Shown here piece after piece: positions 6,808-63,286 of a stretch of 64,000 nt of DNA. The notes beneath the pieces are model-generated. The model was given only the letters and a program-made list of their open reading frames with translations, had not been told where the DNA came from and ran no database searches. Source of the stretch: a virus (taxonomy: Duplodnaviria > Caudoviricetes); the IMG/VR virus record IMGVR_UViG_3300042268_000564; one strand, written 5' to 3'. The position numbers and the translations under genes were made by a program. The first letter of the stretch is position 1, and every line of letters begins with the position of its first letter.

Positions 6808-8526
6808 ATGATAACTGCCAGCCAAGGGCAAATTGCTGAAATCAAGATTGGTGACACCCAACAAATATGGCGCATGTTGGGTCCTTCTTTATATTCAATG
6901 CGCCCCTTGTTCCCTATCACTATTAGGGAAATGTTTCAAAATTCAGTGGACGCACAAAAGGCAAAGGGTGTTGAAAACCCTGTGGATTTTAGAATCGTGC
7001 AGGATAAAGACGGCAACTTAACAGTAACTTGTGAAGATGCTGGTGTTGGGATGACAGAAGATATAATCCTAAACAAATTTCTTGCAATCGGTGGCAGCGA
7101 AAAAGGCAGTGACAAGGCTACTGGTGGATTTGGAATAGCAAAAGCATCTATTATCGGTGCCTGTGCTGGATGGTCGCTTTATACCAAGAAATCATATTTG
7201 GATTCAGGTATGATTGGGAAGTGTCCTGTGGCACAGGTTTCTGAGGAAGTTGATGGATGCAAGATTGTTCTTAACTATAATTTTAATGAGGAAAATCTTG
7301 GGCTGAAATTCACATATGGGATGTTGGACAATGCAATGGCATATCTTGCCACATCACAATATCCAGCCAGAGTATATATTGAAAAAAATGGTAAGAGTAG
7401 CAGCACGGACTTACATGGCTACGCACCAAATGAAAAGATGCATATTGCAACTATAAGTAATAATGCTTATAAGGCAAAATTGTACCTCGCACCACAAATC
7501 AAATACTCTTATTTCAGTGCCTATTTTTGCGATTTGCAATGGGATGGATATAACAACAACGTAAGCCTTGAGGGTAAAATTATTTACCGCTTGAATGGCT
7601 TGACACAGTTTATTACTTGGGGTGGTGATTGTAAGTTTAATGTTCTGGTTGACATTGAAAGCTATGTTAAACCTACTGACAGTGAATACCCATTTTCTGC
7701 ATCAAGAGAGACGGCAAAGGCAGACTTGCGAAATCTGGTAGAAGAAAAAACAAAGAATTTTTTCAAGAACCCAGTGACCACACAGCAGCTCATCGGCAAT
7801 ATTGAAAATAATGTTGCAGAGCAGAAGGTGCAATATTATGATGGCGAACTTGTCCAGACGGCAATTTTTACCAGTGCTGCATTACAAGTAGCCGATGATG
7901 CACCTGTAGCTGCCACAATAGCAAAAACTGATGTAGAAGTGACCATAGATGAGATAGAGGAACAGGTCGCAACATTGCCAGAGCTGGACGCAACTTTTGT
8001 AATAAGAAAGAAAATGCCTGAAAAATTGGTCGCAGAAAATACAGGTTTTGGACGAACGGCAGTGCAATTCTCTAATGAAGAAACTACCATTTCTCCTGTG
8101 GCGTGGAAGATGTGCATTAAATATCGTGATGCAAGCGTCTTAAAAAAGCTGGTGCAGAAAAAATATGCAAAAATTCTGCGTGTTTGGACAGAATTAATGC
8201 AAAAACTTATGGAAGCCAACCCTGCAATTGCTCATTCTTTTGCGATTGGATTTATAACAAATGAACATAGGTTTGCTGAAAGATTCGACGATTATAAAAA
8301 TAATACAGTGTATTATCTGATTGACCCAACAACGATTAAAATTTCAGGTGGGCTTGATACGGTTTTGCAGATGCTCCAGTATGCAGCGCACGAGTTGGCG
8401 CATTCAAAGTTTTATTCTCATGATGAGAATTTTACCTGCGAGTATCATAGAGTATGGGACAATTTTATGCAAAAATTTGGCACAAAAACTTTGCGACAAA
8501 TAGCTAAGGTTTTTAAAGCAAAATAA
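6808..8526 (+). CDS. GHKL (Hsp90/MORC-like) ATPase with C-terminal HExxH motif
   Basis: REMFQNSVDA, EDAGVGM and GGFGIA; C-terminal HELAH...HDENF. Confidence 0.8.
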   Translation: MITASQGQIAEIKIGDTQQIWRMLGPSLYSMRPLFPITIREMFQNSVDAQKAKGVENPVDFRIVQDKDGNLTVTCEDAGVGMTEDIILNKFLAIGGSEKGSDKATGGFGIAKASIIGACAGWSLYTKKSYLDSGMIGKCPVAQVSEEVDGCKIVLNYNFNEENLGLKFTYGMLDNAMAYLATSQYPARVYIEKNGKSSSTDLHGYAPNEKMHIATISNNAYKAKLYLAPQIKYSYFSAYFCDLQWDGYNNNVSLEGKIIYRLNGLTQFITWGGDCKFNVLVDIESYVKPTDSEYPFSASRETAKADLRNLVEEKTKNFFKNPVTTQQLIGNIENNVAEQKVQYYDGELVQTAIFTSAALQVADDAPVAATIAKTDVEVTIDEIEEQVATLPELDATFVIRKKMPEKLVAENTGFGRTAVQFSNEETTISPVAWKMCIKYRDASVLKKLVQKKYAKILRVWTELMQKLMEANPAIAHSFAIGFITNEHRFAERFDDYKNNTVYYLIDPTTIKISGGLDTVLQMLQYAAHELAHSKFYSHDENFTCEYHRVWDNFMQKFGTKTLRQIAKVFKAK

Positions 8527-40745: not shown

Positions 40746-41030
40746 TTATGCGCTATAGCTATCATAGCTTCTGATTTTACTGCGCTTGTCGGTCGATTTG
40801 CAAGTTATCATTTCTCTAATGTGCGCTGCGTCGTATCCCTGCGCTATCATAGCTTCAAAGAATTTTGCTGCATCACTATCTTCTTCAAGATACGCATTTT
40901 CACCAAGCTGATAGGAGCAGGTCGAAATTTTGTCAGCGATTCCAAGAGCAACAAGGTCTTTCTTGGGCACTTTCAACCAGCCATGTCCGGGGTCTGCGAA
41001 AAAGCTCATTTTCTTAAGATTTACTTTCAT
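40746..41030 (-). CDS. Conserved small phage/plasmid hypothetical protein
   Basis: DPGHGWLKV...YLEED; promoter 41064-41091 and AAGGAGCCGAG leader. Confidence 0.75.
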   Translation of the reverse strand: MKVNLKKMSFFADPGHGWLKVPKKDLVALGIADKISTCSYQLGENAYLEEDSDAAKFFEAMIAQGYDAAHIREMITCKSTDKRSKIRSYDSYSA

Positions 41031-43611: not shown

Positions 43612-43676
43612 ACAGGCTGTTTTTACGTATAAGAGTATGAATCTTACTTGTTTTTGTTTTGCTGTAAACAGCCTTT
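43612..43676 (-). ncRNA. CAGCAA-module RNA, type A1: encloses a lone anticodon stem-loop (CAU)
   Basis: AAAGGCTG-TTTACAGCAA...TAAGA-TTCATAC-TCTTA...CAGCCTG. Confidence 0.75.
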
Positions 43677-53847: not shown

Positions 53848-54246
53848 TTACAGGATATCGTCGTCGTTACGTTGTCTGCGAACAGGTTCTGTCGACTGCT
53901 GTGTGGCGGAATGTGTTTTATTTAAAGCATTTTGTATGGATTTTGTCTCATTGGCTGAAACATTCGTCTGTGGTGTAGCCTCTGCAAGGTCTTTGTTCAT
54001 TGCATTTCTAATCAAAGAAAGCCGGGTAAGGGCATAATTTTCTTTCAAAGTCTCGATTTGCAAAATCAAAAGATTCAACGCTGTTTCATTATAAGTAATG
54101 TCAGTCATTGTCCGCATGTTGGCGTCTTTTATAAGCTTGATTTTATAAATTTTTTCTTCGAAATCAGCTTCTGCTGGTGGTTGGACTGGCGCAGAGCTAG
54201 GTGTGGCAGGTGGTGTATTTTTTTTGACAGGTGATTTTTTAACCAT
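53848..54246 (-). CDS. Hypothetical protein
   Basis: GGAG RBS. Confidence 0.6.
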   Translation of the reverse strand: MVKKSPVKKNTPPATPSSAPVQPPAEADFEEKIYKIKLIKDANMRTMTDITYNETALNLLILQIETLKENYALTRLSLIRNAMNKDLAEATPQTNVSANETKSIQNALNKTHSATQQSTEPVRRQRNDDDIL

Positions 54247-54346
54247 AAAACAAATCTCTCCAAACTAAATTTTTACTTGTATATATTATACTTTCAAACT
54301 AGCTTACAAAAACGCCAACAGAAAAATCGCATGATGGCTGTTATTA

Positions 54347-59435: not shown

Positions 59436-59472
59436 AAAAACAAATAAGCCCGTAGCTTTTGGGCTACAGGCT
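59436..59472 (-). terminator. Probable terminator of the RNA cluster
   Basis: AGCCTGTAGC...GCTACGGGCT then TATTTGTTTTTT. Confidence 0.6.
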
Positions 59473-59509
59473 CACTTGTATATCAATTTGCCTAATAGAG
59501 CTTAATAAA

Positions 59510-59582
59510 ACAGATTGTTGTTTTAACAAAGATTAACAGTCTTTTGCTCATTTGAGCGGTTGTGTTGCTGTAAACAATCTTT
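59510..59582 (-). ncRNA. CAGCAA-module RNA, type A2: encloses a mini D-stem and an anticodon stem-loop (GUU)
   Basis: AAAGATTG-TTTACAGCAAC...GCTC-AAAT-GAGC-A-AAAGA-CTGTTAA-TCTTT...CAATCTG. Confidence 0.75.
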
Positions 59583-59598: not shown

Positions 59599-59735
59599 GG
59601 CAGGAAGTAGGACTCGAACCTACACGTCTTGCGACACCAGTCCCGTTGTTAAGTAGTTTGAGTTGCTGTATGTAACCTTTGTCAGGTTAACCTTTACTTT
59701 TTTACTGGTGCGTCTGCCAATTCCGCCATTCCCGC
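59599..59735 (-). ncRNA. tRNA-like RNA, type B1: Leu-type body with the anticodon loop replaced by a ~62-nt CAGCAA module
   Basis: GCGGGAA/TTCCTGC acceptor, Leu D-arm, ACCAGT/ACTGGT stem, long variable arm, GGTTCGAGTCC; insert TAACCTGACAAAGGTTACATACAGCAAC. Confidence 0.85.
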
Positions 59736-59739
59736 CAAA

Positions 59740-60306
59740 TTATCTTTTGCCACTCCTATCTTTAATCAGGTCAATAAGAGCCTGCACTTTCTCAATTGTC
59801 AAAAAGCCATCGAAATCAAAGTTGTGAACAACGATACAGTTTGTTATATTTTTTTCATCGTTCGGGTCATAGGTAGAAATAGTAACCATTTCATTAAAGT
59901 CACCAATATTTCCAGCCTGTAGTAACCTGCGTCTACCCAAGCGATAAAAAATTTGATGTCCAATGGTGAAATGAGGTATTTCTTCAAAACCAAGTGCTAT
60001 TAGGTCAGCATTTTTAAGTGGTGTCCCTCTGTATTCCGGCTTATCTTTATCTGCAAGCAGATTGATAAAAGCATTTATCTTTTCTTCCGTTAAAGCACCC
60101 TCAAACAGATGGTCGTGAAGAGAAATTATGTCGGTTATTTCTTTTCCATCATTGTCGTCAATCATAAGCGATTCACTGGTTGTTCCAACGCCAGCAACAC
60201 TTAACGCTCGTCCACGACTCAAAGGATAAAAGAAATTGCCACCAATAGAATATTGAGGACGTCTTTTAAATCCAAGTTCCAACAAGTCTTCAGTTGTAAG
60301 TGTCAT
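59740..60306 (-). CDS. Hypothetical protein made of two tandem ~90-aa domains
   Basis: Twice L...DL..LGF...P...IG...FY.L.R.R.L...G.LT.EK..A.I.L. Confidence 0.75.
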   Translation of the reverse strand: MTLTTEDLLELGFKRRPQYSIGGNFFYPLSRGRALSVAGVGTTSESLMIDDNDGKEITDIISLHDHLFEGALTEEKINAFINLLADKDKPEYRGTPLKNADLIALGFEEIPHFTIGHQIFYRLGRRRLLQAGNIGDFNEMVTISTYDPNDEKNITNCIVVHNFDFDGFLTIEKVQALIDLIKDRSGKR

Positions 60307-60361
60307 TTTTTACCATTCCTTAACTAAGCTTGTTGTTATTATAACCAAAAAGAACAAGTTG

Positions 60362-60586
60362 TCAACTTGTTCTTTTTGATTTCGGTACAATTGGAAGCTT
60401 TTCATGCTTAGCAAAATGTCGTTTTAGAAAGGTAAGCATCTTCTCACCATTCTCAGTTAAGACAAAACCTGTTCCATTGCATTTTCCACACTCATAGTTC
60501 TGATTGCATGAACATTCTTCATCAAGCTTTACAATGGTATTAGCGTTGATGTCTTTCTTGCACTTAAGAACTATTTTTTCTTGCAT
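60362..60586 (-). CDS. Small zinc-finger protein
   Basis: CSC...CGKCNGTG; start trimmed to exclude the RNA genes. Confidence 0.6.
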   Translation of the reverse strand: MQEKIVLKCKKDINANTIVKLDEECSCNQNYECGKCNGTGFVLTENGEKMLTFLKRHFAKHEKLPIVPKSKRTS

Positions 60587-60611
60587 GAAAATTCCCTTCT
60601 GGAAAGAACAG

Positions 60612-60730
60612 GGCGGGGGATAGGACTTGAACCTATGACCTAAAGCTTGTATTTTTTTGGGTTGCTGCATGTAACCTTTTGTCAGGTTAACTTTTAATGG
60701 CTCTCGCTCTACCAACTGAGCTACCCCCGC
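60612..60730 (-). ncRNA. tRNA-like RNA, type B2: class I body with the anticodon loop replaced by the CAGCAA module
   Basis: GCGGGGG/CCCCCGC, GCTCAGTTGGTAGAGC, AGAGC/GCTTT, AGGTC, GGTTCAAGTCC; insert TAACCTGACAAAAGGTTACATGCAGCAAC. Confidence 0.85.
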
Positions 60731-60741
60731 AATTTTATAAA

Positions 60742-60802
60742 ACAGGCTGTCAATTTTAACAATTTCAAGTTGTTTGTTGTTGAGTTGCTGAAAACAGCCT
60801 TT
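60742..60802 (-). ncRNA. CAGCAA-module RNA, type A3: encloses a lone anticodon stem-loop (UGA)
   Basis: AAAGGCTG-TTTTCAGCAAC...AACAA-CTTGAAA-TTGTT...CAGCCTG. Confidence 0.75.
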
Positions 60803-60810
60803 ATTCTCGG

Positions 60811-60909
60811 TGGGGCAGATTGGATTTGAACCAATAATTCTTTGTGTTGCAGTATCAAACCTTATCAGGCTTGCTCGCCCTCTACCAATGTGAGCGATAT
60901 ACCTGCCCC
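60811..60909 (-). ncRNA. tRNA-like RNA, type B3: divergent body with a module variant in place of the anticodon arm
   Basis: GGGGCAG/CTGCCCC, ATTGG-TTCAAAT-CCAAT; insert AAGCCTGATAAGGTTTGATACTGCAAC. Confidence 0.75.
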
Positions 60910-60925
60910 ATATTCGGTGCCGGAA

Positions 60926-60957
<32 letters not shown>

Positions 60958-60966
60958 GTGGATTTT

Positions 60967-61686
60967 CCTACCACACTATTTTTCAATAGCCTCGTTAACA
61001 CGAGTTGTAGTCTGGACTATATCTTCACCCACGTCATTATACGTTACGGGTGCTTCGTGCATAGTCTCTGAACCTTCCTCTTTCTTTTCAGTTAAGAGGC
61101 TCGGCTGCTGATTACCTAATTCCCAAAGTTTTATAACATTCACGCCCGTTGTTTCCAACCACGTTGTAGTCTTTGAGACTATCAAGGCTTTCCAGCAATT
61201 CTCGAAGTTTTCATTTGTAGATTTCGCTACAACGACTCTTTGAAGGTCTAAAAAACGATGAAGCTTCCCATGCGCTTTTCTTGATATAACTATCAAATTA
61301 CAGATTTGATTATTCTTAGGATTTTCGTCCAAATGATGAACAATTTCATCCGTATTTAATTGTCTGCCAAGAGTCTTTTCTGCGAGGTCTCGGTGTAATG
61401 TCCTGCCCGGTATGTTCGTAAACTTATAATTATTGGTAGTTTTTACTTGTCCAGCCAATTCCAACTTTAATGTATTACATGCTTTACAAAGCAAAGATGT
61501 TTTCTTTCCTGCCTGAAATTGACTATTACAAGCAACACACTTTTTAACCCATGTGTATCTAGCATAACTGTTTACACGAATTATATTACAAGCCCTACAC
61601 AACCGTCTGCCAATCTCTCTCGGCTTGCCACATACCTTACAGAACAAATCTTTTGTCACAACTTCTCCTTTTAAAAACCTAGAACA
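60967..61686 (-). mobile_element. Group I intron
   Basis: P AATTGCTGGAAA, Q AATCAGCAGCC, R TTCAGAGACTA, S AAGATATAGTCC; terminal G; guide GAGTC at 61238-61234 pairs with exon GACTT. Confidence 0.93.
60976..61659 (-). CDS. Intron-encoded HNH homing endonuclease with zinc fingers
   Basis: AAGGAG plus GTG start; four CxxC; IVHHLDENPKNNQICNL...HGKLH. Confidence 0.88.
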   Translation of the reverse strand: MTKDLFCKVCGKPREIGRRLCRACNIIRVNSYARYTWVKKCVACNSQFQAGKKTSLLCKACNTLKLELAGQVKTTNNYKFTNIPGRTLHRDLAEKTLGRQLNTDEIVHHLDENPKNNQICNLIVISRKAHGKLHRFLDLQRVVVAKSTNENFENCWKALIVSKTTTWLETTGVNVIKLWELGNQQPSLLTEKKEEGSETMHEAPVTYNDVGEDIVQTTTRVNEAIEK

Positions 61687-61727
61687 AAGTCCACTGCGTC
61701 TGCCGATTCCGCCATCCCGGCGTTCAG

Positions 61728-62860: not shown

Positions 62861-63286
62861 TCAAAACAAAGTCCTTTGCCACGGAGCTTTGTCAATGTGC
62901 CCTGCATCCTCAAGCTTCTTTATCAAGAGCTTACATTCTTCAACGCTAAACTTTCCAATGTGAGCCTCTTCCTTGGACTTGCCAAGCAACTGCTGCATCA
63001 TAATGTAAGCTGCCCGTCTCAGGAAATTGGTCTCTTTTGGATTACTACCCTTTTTCCAGAGAGGGTCAAAGGCTGCATGAGCTTTGTTGCGCCAACTCCT
63101 CAGCTCTTTGTTGGCAAGTGTTCCAAGTGGAGTATGTTGAGCACTATTTTTATGAGTCCCAACATAAGCATCGCATGGTTTACACAACCAAATTAAGCCA
63201 TAACTTTTACCACCATAAACCTGAGCAGAATCAACCAATTTTGCCTGATTCCCACAGTAAGGACATATAACTTCCATTGTTATCAC
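62861..63286 (-). CDS. DUF3268 family zinc-finger protein
   Basis: CPYCG...WLCKPCDAYVGTH...PLGTLA...AH.AFDPLW. Confidence 0.85.
   Translation of the reverse strand: MITMEVICPYCGNQAKLVDSAQVYGGKSYGLIWLCKPCDAYVGTHKNSAQHTPLGTLANKELRSWRNKAHAAFDPLWKKGSNPKETNFLRRAAYIMMQQLLGKSKEEAHIGKFSVEECKLLIKKLEDAGHIDKAPWQRTLF

Follow-up and report, generated by a model that had tools for sequence, protein, structure and literature searches.

Ro60 and Y RNAs form a conserved but poorly understood RNA-surveillance particle, and to our knowledge the role of the tRNA-like half of bacterial Y RNAs is still an open question in the field. Genes of Ro60 proteins are accompanied by adjacent, same-strand Y RNA genes whose products mimic transfer RNA (tRNA); YrlA of Mycobacterium smegmatis is cut by RNase P and subsequently receives CCA, and the YrlA motif GNCGAA(N)G lies near the 5' end (PMC4201824). 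A phage Ro60 binds phage-encoded Y-like RNAs (PMC12135203), and TROVE proteins have been presented in a jumbo-phage review as an RNA-repair platform with a tRNA-like partner (PMC7824862). Here we describe three small RNA genes, B1, B2 and B3, in a stretch of 64,000 nucleotides (nt), hereafter the window, of the viral record IMGVR_UViG_3300042268_000564 (Duplodnaviria; Caudoviricetes). They encode tRNA bodies without an anticodon, in which a hairpin module, the handle, lies in or replaces the anticodon arm. B1-B3 are most likely non-decoding, tRNA-shaped small RNAs that would act as partners of the phage's DUF2828 protein, for which a Ro60-like fold is predicted. The window comprises bases 63068-127067 of the 393,839 bp record (39.6% G+C, rated complete) and possesses a long tRNA cluster on its minus strand. 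ARAGORN places eight ordinary tRNAs in the window; for the whole genome its count is about 30.

B1, B2 and B3 are all located on the minus strand. B1 (59599-59735) is a class II, Leu-like tRNA body, closest to the phage's own Leu tRNAs, with the discriminator C at 59599. It scores 34.1 bits against the Rfam tRNA model, in a match that spans a large anticodon-loop insertion. Its acceptor stem of 7 bp (GCGGGAA/UUCCUGC; 59606-59600 with 59735-59729) includes a G3:U70 wobble, and a D arm, an anticodon stem of 5 bp (CCAGU/ACUGG), a long variable arm and a T arm are all present. In place of the anticodon loop B1 possesses an insert of 62 nt (59642-59703), composed of a 14-nt A-rich linker, the handle (59662-59689; hairpin UAACCU-GACAA-AGGUUA, CAUA, CAGCAAC) and a 20-nt linker. 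B2 (60612-60730) is a class I body, likewise with discriminator C, which reaches the gathering score of the Rfam tRNA model (53.6 bits) and has a fold z-score of -2.3. Its anticodon stem (AGAGC/GCUUU) closes an insert of 53 nt (60647-60699) with a 10-nt linker, the handle (60661-60689; hairpin UAACCU-GACAAA-AGGUUA, CAUG, CAGCAAC) and a 14-nt A/C-rich linker. A preliminary description of this DNA, made from the letters alone, had put the inserts at 50-60 nt, which fits B2 and is slightly short for B1.

B3 (60811-60909) is a compact tRNA-like RNA with discriminator A, followed by CC. It folds into an acceptor stem, a 6 bp D-like stem with GG in the loop and a T arm with the loop UUCAAAU. The handle hairpin (60846-60872; AAGCCU-GAUA-AGGUUU with one G-U pair, GAUA, CUGCAAC) directly replaces the whole anticodon arm, and an anticodon stem is missing. 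B3 is called by neither ARAGORN nor Rfam; its fold energy has a z-score of -3.8, and none of 200 shuffled sequences folds as well. A 7-nt anticodon loop with U33 and a three-base anticodon is found in none of B1-B3. The three anticodon-less tRNA bodies are thus present where the preliminary description had placed them, B1 and B2 according to the Rfam tRNA model and B3 according to its fold. The core that it had proposed for all three, i.e. a hairpin, 4 nt and C(A/U)GCAAC, can be read directly from the sequence, and B3 carries the compact variant.

The cores of B1 and B2 are distinguished by one inserted A and one A/G change. The core shared by B1-B3 is beyond chance. In a search of the window with a covariance model (R1), built from 17 hairpins of other phage contigs, B1 (36.7 bits), B2 (31.2 bits) and B3 (28.2 bits) are the top three matches (E 1.7e-6 to 1.6e-4), followed by a match of 17.1 bits; R1 is partly circular, as is the count of 100% helix pairing, because the patterns used to collect the closed examples had been taken from B1 and B2, and the examples were filtered for pairing. 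Neither tRNAs nor other handles surround the 17.1-bit match (40863-40895), which is probably due to chance.

The handle consists of a 6 bp helix, with A-U and G-C as its loop-side pairs followed by a G, and an unpaired C(A/U)GCAAC 4 nt past the helix. Strict rules with controls took the place of an initial loose regular expression, in which chance matches prevailed. The strict rule requires the helix strand AGNNNN, 4 nt, C(A/T)GCAA and, within 130 nt, a fully pairing NNNNCT followed by G. Under this rule the 394-kb phage genome contains eight handle copies: B1-B3, A1-A3, Y1 and Y2. The helix of B1-B3 is closed by a short loop. In A1-A3 it is open, i.e. formed by the two ends of an RNA of about 65 nt, and each of these RNAs encloses a 5 bp stem with a 7-nt anticodon-like loop. 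A1 (43613-43676, minus strand; loop UUCAUAC; fold z-score -3.8) is located between tRNA-Trp and tRNA-Gly. A2 (59511-59582, minus strand) possesses a mini D-like hairpin besides its anticodon-arm mimic (loop CUGUUAA) and follows directly downstream of B1, and A3 (60743-60802, minus strand; loop CUUGAAA) lies between B3 and B2. Y1 (genome position 306112, plus strand) and Y2 (genome position 307157, plus strand) also have open handles; they are found about 1 kb and directly upstream of the DUF2828 gene, respectively, on the strand of that gene. In the closing loop of B1-B3, CUG...AAG, the 3'-terminal letters of the open RNAs are followed by their 5'-initial ones; the closed handle is a circular permutation of the open form. 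No Rfam family covers the handle, and in 80 viral DUF2828 loci, obtained by an alignment-based scan, Rfam reports only tRNAs.

Applied to these 80 loci, the strict rule for the open form finds 121 handles on the strand of the gene against a single one on the other strand, and the reversed sequences yield none. The unique copies number 98, and 23 different covarying helix sequences are represented among them. Most copies are situated within 500 nt before the DUF2828 gene, and at least one is present within 800 nt upstream in 42 of 73 loci. Bacterial and archaeal DUF2828 loci (74) contain the strict handle 17 times on the gene strand, with no copy on the opposite strand or in the reversed sequence. 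For the open form, the controls by strand and by reversal do not depend on the patterns taken from B1 and B2. The DUF2828 gene usually lies inside a phage tRNA cluster.

The enclosed part of the open-handle RNAs is bimodal in length. Short forms mostly carry anticodon-arm mimics with the loop YU-NNN-RN; a short RNA at L018:3654 has a T-arm look-alike (GAGG-UUCGAUC-CCUC) instead of the anticodon arm. Long forms include permuted tRNA mimics with an anticodon-like arm, a T arm, an acceptor closed by a tetraloop and a D arm. At L055:970-1072, an open handle flanks a complete tRNA-Arg(UCU) in the manner of a leader and a trailer, where normal end processing would remove it. Both length classes occur in Escherichia phage warpig (MN850637.1, near 53986-54278), which belongs to the Felix O1-like phages and can be grown on E. 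coli K-12: one short handle RNA (L399:7713-7780) and one long handle RNA, a permuted tRNA mimic (7879-8005), are found unannotated in gaps of the tRNA cluster just after the gene of a 'vWFA protein' (DUF2828).

The DUF2828 gene of the phage, which includes a von Willebrand factor A (vWA) domain, spans genome positions 307153-308916 on the plus strand (Pfam DUF2828 1.9e-27, DUF7788 3.9e-34 and a weak VWA match). Its homologues are about 480-500 amino acids long; the true start is therefore probably 70-100 codons downstream of the first start of the open reading frame (ORF), and Y2 precedes the gene. A sequence search of PDB entries gave no match for the protein. An AlphaFold model, made with 28 homologues, has a mean pLDDT of 81. 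Ro60/TROVE chains occupy the first 13 places among its PDB matches, with alignments of about 500-590 columns; they include frog Ro60 1yvr (E 1.5e-8), Deinococcus Rsr 2nvo, Thermus phage Ro60 9l5y and human Ro60, and vWA domains rank after them. TM-scores of the model against the Ro60 chains, normalised by target length, range from 0.37 to 0.60. By these matches, the predicted model corresponds to a HEAT-repeat ring closed by a vWA domain. On this evidence, the DUF2828 protein is predicted to be a distant Ro60-like ring protein.

Homologues of DUF2828 are present in 695 isolated phage genomes, including Felix O1-like, Campylobacter, Listeria, Staphylococcus, Enterococcus and Vibrio phages and cyanophages. 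Mycobacteriophage proteins annotated as 'Ro-like RNA binding protein' match DUF2828 with about 27% identity (E ~1e-40), which gives the family a sequence link to proteins that bear a Ro-like name already. A literature search found no paper on the function of DUF2828. In the surroundings of the phage gene, a Metallophos phosphoesterase (genome 300972-302342) is encoded 5 kb upstream and a ClpP protease at 305371-306066, and a gene of the PolyA_pol/CCA-adding family (genome 297109-297522) is located within 10 kb. Recurrent neighbours in the 80 viral loci are Metallophos (calcineurin-like phosphoesterase, 26 loci), DSP phosphatase (13 loci) and AAA_33 kinase (10 loci), all of them families used in RNA end healing.

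An exact search for the B1/B2 core in viral and metagenome contigs gave no match, i.e. no near-identical relatives, and degenerate patterns were needed to reach relatives. Closed handles in tRNA bodies were found in 19 further viral contigs, two of them from the DUF2828 loci and about 17 by pattern scan. DUF2828 is encoded in 13 of the 19; the other six contigs are incomplete, three of them being fragments of 4-5 kb. More closed-handle tRNA bodies are present in metagenome contigs and in phages in culture, among them Synechococcus phage BUCT-ZZ01 (ON615601.1, near 111253-111414), Vibrio phage CZ01 (PV740454.1, near 99841-102290) and Aeromonas phage phiWae14 (LC778249.1, near 77328-77498). Many relatives retain the anticodon arm, with the handle placed between it and the D arm, and often encode CCA. 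Such composite forms include L136:735, L146:733, L143:8510, L150:8624, L164:3530 and others, where the handle lies between position 26 and the anticodon arm, and their anticodons are GCU, AUG, GUC, UCU, UUC and UCC.

Two relatives, L395 and L284, resemble B1 and B2 in that the anticodon stem alone is kept around the handle. L284:2507-2635 is an analogue of B2. L395:105-264, on a 1-kb metagenome contig, is a homologue of B1 with the same neighbours, tRNA-Gln(UUG) and tRNA-Leu(CAA). B1 and L395 share the D arm, the anticodon stem, an identical handle helix, CAUACAGCAA and the T loop, and their handles differ in the hairpin loop only. Both sides have changed at the pairs 1-72, 2-71, 7-66 and 49-65 as well as in the variable stem. 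The linkers have diverged in sequence and length, the 3' linker extending from 20 to 36 nt. The discriminator C73 of B1 and B2 is replaced by A73 and followed by CCA in L395 and L284. Because L395 keeps all stems through compensatory changes while the linkers diverge, the comparison indicates that B1-B3 are under selection and not decaying. Selection had been argued for in the preliminary description, which named random decay of stems in homologues as the observation that would speak against it; L395 displays the opposite.

We consider it fairly probable that B1-B3 are circularly permuted analogues of YrlA on which a Ro60-like protein would dock, with a probable role in the repair or surveillance of tRNAs. 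YrlA (RF02553), which is bound by bacterial and mycobacteriophage Ro60/Rsr, shares with B1-B3 the D arm, the T arm and the acceptor stem, and handle RNAs, too, are encoded together with a Ro60-type ring protein. The open-handle siblings of other phages show the exact order of YrlA: handle strand, variable or anticodon-like arm, T arm, closed acceptor, D arm and handle strand. The two differ in that the acceptor of B1-B3 is free and their handle, closed by a loop, lies in or replaces the anticodon arm, whereas YrlA has an open handle and a closed acceptor. Moreover, the handle motif is CAGCAA versus GNCGAA, the presumed partner is DUF2828 versus Pfam TROVE, and several handle copies occur per genome, spread across tRNA clusters far from the protein gene. 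YrlA and Ro60 genes share a strand and lie no more than about 4 kb apart, an arrangement that Y1 and Y2 show with the DUF2828 gene but B1-B3 do not.

Ro60 of Thermus phage phiLo with Yrl1 and Yrl2 (PMC12135203; PDB 9KOP, 9L5Y) resembles the present system in having a phage ring protein with small RNAs just upstream, and its Ro60 structures rank near the top of the matches to the DUF2828 model. The phiLo Y RNAs, however, are stem-bulge-stem RNAs with a CGAA motif and no tRNA body, and binding has been shown for phiLo, whereas for the handle RNAs it is inferred. The Y RNA that is cut by RNase P ends with a free tRNA-like acceptor, the state that is encoded in B1-B3. Its free end is made by cutting a closed acceptor, whereas B1-B3 encode the free end and their relatives even CCA. 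Transfer-messenger RNA (tmRNA) is comparable as a tRNA-like ribonucleoprotein component with acceptor and T arms, no anticodon and a G3:U70 pair, the latter also occurring in B1. B1-B3 differ from it by the lack of an mRNA-like part and of any match to tmRNA models, and G3:U70 is not kept in L395.

According to the mechanism that we propose, B1-B3 would be transcribed with the phage tRNA cluster and probably trimmed at both ends like tRNAs, because the acceptor, D and T arms are intact. The handle would serve as the docking site for the phage's Ro60-like ring protein (DUF2828 with vWA). The tRNA-shaped part would, in analogy to Y RNAs, tether or gate the ring protein toward proteins or RNAs that recognise the tRNA shape. 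The particle may serve tRNA repair, surveillance or decoying against host tRNA-cutting defences; the gene neighbourhoods of DUF2828 point to a role in tRNA repair or surveillance.

Several observations weigh against B1-B3 being YrlA analogues and partners of DUF2828, besides the partial circularity of R1. Some 183 kb separate B1-B3 from the DUF2828 gene, which is encoded on the opposite strand, and what links the handle to DUF2828 is genomic association together with analogy. The handle motif is CAGCAA and not of the CGAA type of known Y RNAs. The DUF2828 protein has no match to Pfam TROVE (PF05731), and the Rfam YrlA model, whose gathering score is 69, reaches at most 22 bits in the whole genome, and does so at neighbouring tRNA pairs and not at B1-B3. 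One contig of 114 kb (71% complete) carries a closed-handle tRNA body and has no DUF2828 match. Finally, precise removal of the handle from the composite relatives yields a normal tRNA, and the fate of the handle may there be intron-like.

A broader proposal extends the docking to modular tRNA-mimic particles, in which one handle would dock bodies (B1-B3), anticodon arms (A1-A3) and, elsewhere, complete tRNAs onto the Ro60-like ring, where targets of host anticodon nucleases would be captured, decoyed or repaired, and in which the handle would be homologous to the amoebal Class I RNAs. Dictyostelid Class I RNAs are described as beginning with AAG and ending with CUGU, with a short stem that joins the two ends and an 11-nt motif beside the 5' stem strand, and an RRM protein is reported as their binder (PMC7919456). 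A1-A3 and Y2 agree with this verbal description in the length of about 60 nt, the short covarying stem, the AAG and CUGU ends and the position of a conserved motif beside the 5' strand. The Class I RNAs differ in being eukaryotic and in having an RRM binder (PMC7919456), and B1-B3 represent a permuted, tRNA-embedded form with loop-joined ends. We regard this proposal as tentative and rather unlikely. If it were true, the handle RNAs would belong to an ancient, undescribed Ro/Y-RNA branch spanning viruses, bacteria, archaea and eukaryotes.

The handle could also be functional with a partner or role unrelated to DUF2828, e.g. as an RNase site, as a processing or stability signal of tRNA clusters or as the site of another protein. 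Handles are mostly found inside tRNA clusters, where processing signals are to be expected, the open handle at L055:970 surrounds a complete tRNA like a leader and a trailer, and the fairly complete 114-kb contig without a DUF2828 match has a handle-bearing tRNA body; the Class I RNAs, of similar layout, are reportedly bound directly by an RRM protein (PMC7919456). Yet in unrelated phages as well as in bacterial and archaeal assemblies, most handle copies precede DUF2828 by no more than 500 nt and share its strand, and the protein is encoded in 13 of the 19 closed-form contigs, which are mostly fragments. This layout mirrors that of Ro60 genes and Y RNA genes (PMC4201824), and a mere processing site needs no place in the anticodon loop of an otherwise intact tRNA body. 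We therefore judge a role apart from DUF2828 to be distinctly unlikely.

Very unlikely, in our estimate, is that the inserts are new small protein-dependent introns, precisely removed (perhaps by a Ro60-like cofactor and a host ligase) to give working tRNAs. B1 and B2 share with intron-bearing tRNAs (group I or archaeal bulge-helix-bulge type) an extra segment in or next to the anticodon loop, and ARAGORN with its intron option indeed proposes B1 as Arg(ACG) with a 55-nt intron at junction 32/33 and B2 as a UUA 'stop' tRNA with a 46-nt intron at junction 36/37. Relatives of the L136/L146 type carry the handle beside a 5-bp/7-nt anticodon arm, and its removal leaves a perfect cloverleaf, often with CCA. 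We reject the two ARAGORN calls, since they place the junction differently and A33 would remain in each case; it is also implausible that a Leu-like body carries ACG or that a UUA anticodon reads stop codons. As the preliminary description had remarked, no common rule of excision restores a normal anticodon loop. A suppressor tRNA or a recoded stop codon was likewise set aside; it derives from ARAGORN's arbitrary junction alone, and the genes examined are open under code 11. B3 does not even possess an anticodon stem.

Ribozyme and enzyme searches point the same way. With Rfam in E-value mode, a group I match is found only in the neighbouring gene (60989-61261) and no group I core in B1-B3, in agreement with the earlier statement that the inserts are not group I introns. 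Folds of B1-B3 contain no bulge-helix-bulge, and the insert appears as a plain hairpin between long unpaired linkers. A tRNA splicing endonuclease (tRNA_int_endo), RtcB and Rnl2 were not detected in the phage; a search for Rnl1 gave no match in the phage, with a control that found nothing anywhere either. The same handle also occurs in free-standing RNAs that have no exons to join. B1-B3 are thus most likely not intron-bearing tRNAs.

The neighbouring tRNA gene (60916-61721, minus strand) does possess an intron: 720 nt of group I type (Rfam 81.9 bits, 60989-61261), holding an ORF of an HNH endonuclease. ARAGORN calls this tRNA Phe(GAA). With the junction after U and the intron end at G, the loop reads CUU|AAAA and the tRNA is Leu(UAA), so that ARAGORN misplaces this true group I junction as well. 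The resulting junction U34/A35 is what we take to be the classic intron site of tRNA-Leu(UAA). The intron of this neighbour is a further point in favour of inserts being introns.

Highly improbable, too, is a split system, in which B bodies and A anticodon arms would dock on a protein dimer or multimer and jointly present a complete tRNA-like surface, B1-B3 being functional only together with A1-A3. B and A RNAs do adjoin in the orders B1-A2 and B3-A3-B2, many other phages join body, handle and anticodon arm in single RNAs, and a phage Ro60 dimerises on its Y-like RNA (PMC12135203). The handle helices of A and B, however, are each self-complementary without cross-pairing between neighbours. 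The anticodons of the A RNAs (CAU, GUU and UGA) mismatch the bodies, the Leu-like B1 preceding a GUU arm, and open anticodon-arm RNAs are common in phages without the B form.

Least credible is that B1-B3 are dead tRNA genes hit by a small mobile insertion targeting anticodon loops, for although a nearly identical 28-nt core occurs in two unrelated bodies and the vicinity contains homing endonuclease genes and a group I intron, no stem is disrupted, the changes in L395 are compensatory and not random, the linkers differ between copies without target duplications or terminal repeats, and the arrangement recurs with different helices in many phage lineages.

The preliminary description had doubted charging of the B RNAs on account of a missing CCA and of the discriminator C. 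The missing CCA does not set B1-B3 apart, as the ordinary tRNAs of the phage do not encode CCA either. C73 is indeed present in B1 and B2, and as an argument against charging it is weak, given the gene of the CCA-adding family and the lack of conservation of C73. Addition of CCA to B1-B3 is plausible, because the ordinary tRNAs lack CCA too, the phage has its own CCA-adding-family gene and C73 is not conserved; it would parallel the CCA addition shown for YrlA of M. smegmatis (PMC4201824). G3:U70 is the identity pair of alanine; charging of B1 with alanine was considered and set aside, since the pair is G-C in L395 and its presence in B1 is probably incidental.

Further elements are located between and around the B genes. 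A promoter-like site (60338-60365, minus strand) agrees with the sigma-70 consensus in 12 of 12 positions, a match to the consensus alone, and is situated upstream of an ORF of 188 amino acids, B1 and A2. A terminator-like hairpin with a U run (59440-59479, minus strand) closes this unit. A weak Rfam match to a Thr leader (59439-59547) corresponds to A2 plus the downstream terminator hairpin, which was also detected independently. The 188-amino-acid ORF (59740-60306, minus strand), located between B2 and B1, consists of two similar halves and belongs to no Pfam family; it is apparently co-transcribed with B1 and A2 from the consensus promoter. Relatives with 40% identity are found in two viral contigs only (L003 and L004), and neither tRNAs nor handles are present in these contigs. 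Right after B2 and inside the tRNA cluster, an Anti-TRAP-like zinc-ribbon protein of 75 amino acids (3.7e-8) is encoded at 60362-60589 (minus strand), and a DUF3268 zinc-finger protein (9.8e-36) is likewise encoded inside the cluster, at 62861-63286 (minus strand).

Phage Ro60 with Y-like RNAs is already known (PMC4201824, PMC12135203); the handle RNAs tied to DUF2828 were found neither in Rfam nor in the papers searched. This branch of handle and DUF2828 is widespread, with the protein filed just as DUF2828 and the RNAs missing from Rfam. Many different tRNA parts are combined with one and the same handle, and nowhere is the exchange of the anticodon for the handle clearer than in B1-B3. The location in phage tRNA clusters beside RNA end-healing enzymes would tie Ro-type particles to the arms race over tRNA cleavage, and the question is testable, as members occur in tractable phage-host pairs with E. 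coli K-12, Vibrio natriegens and Synechococcus elongatus PCC 7942. For annotation, genes of the B1-B3 type should not be labelled as pseudo-tRNAs, suppressor tRNAs or intron-bearing tRNAs. The finding would recast the 'tRNA without anticodon' as a tRNA-shaped analogue of Y RNA, whose insert is the CAGCAA handle found in many phages together with a DUF2828 gene of predicted Ro60-like fold.

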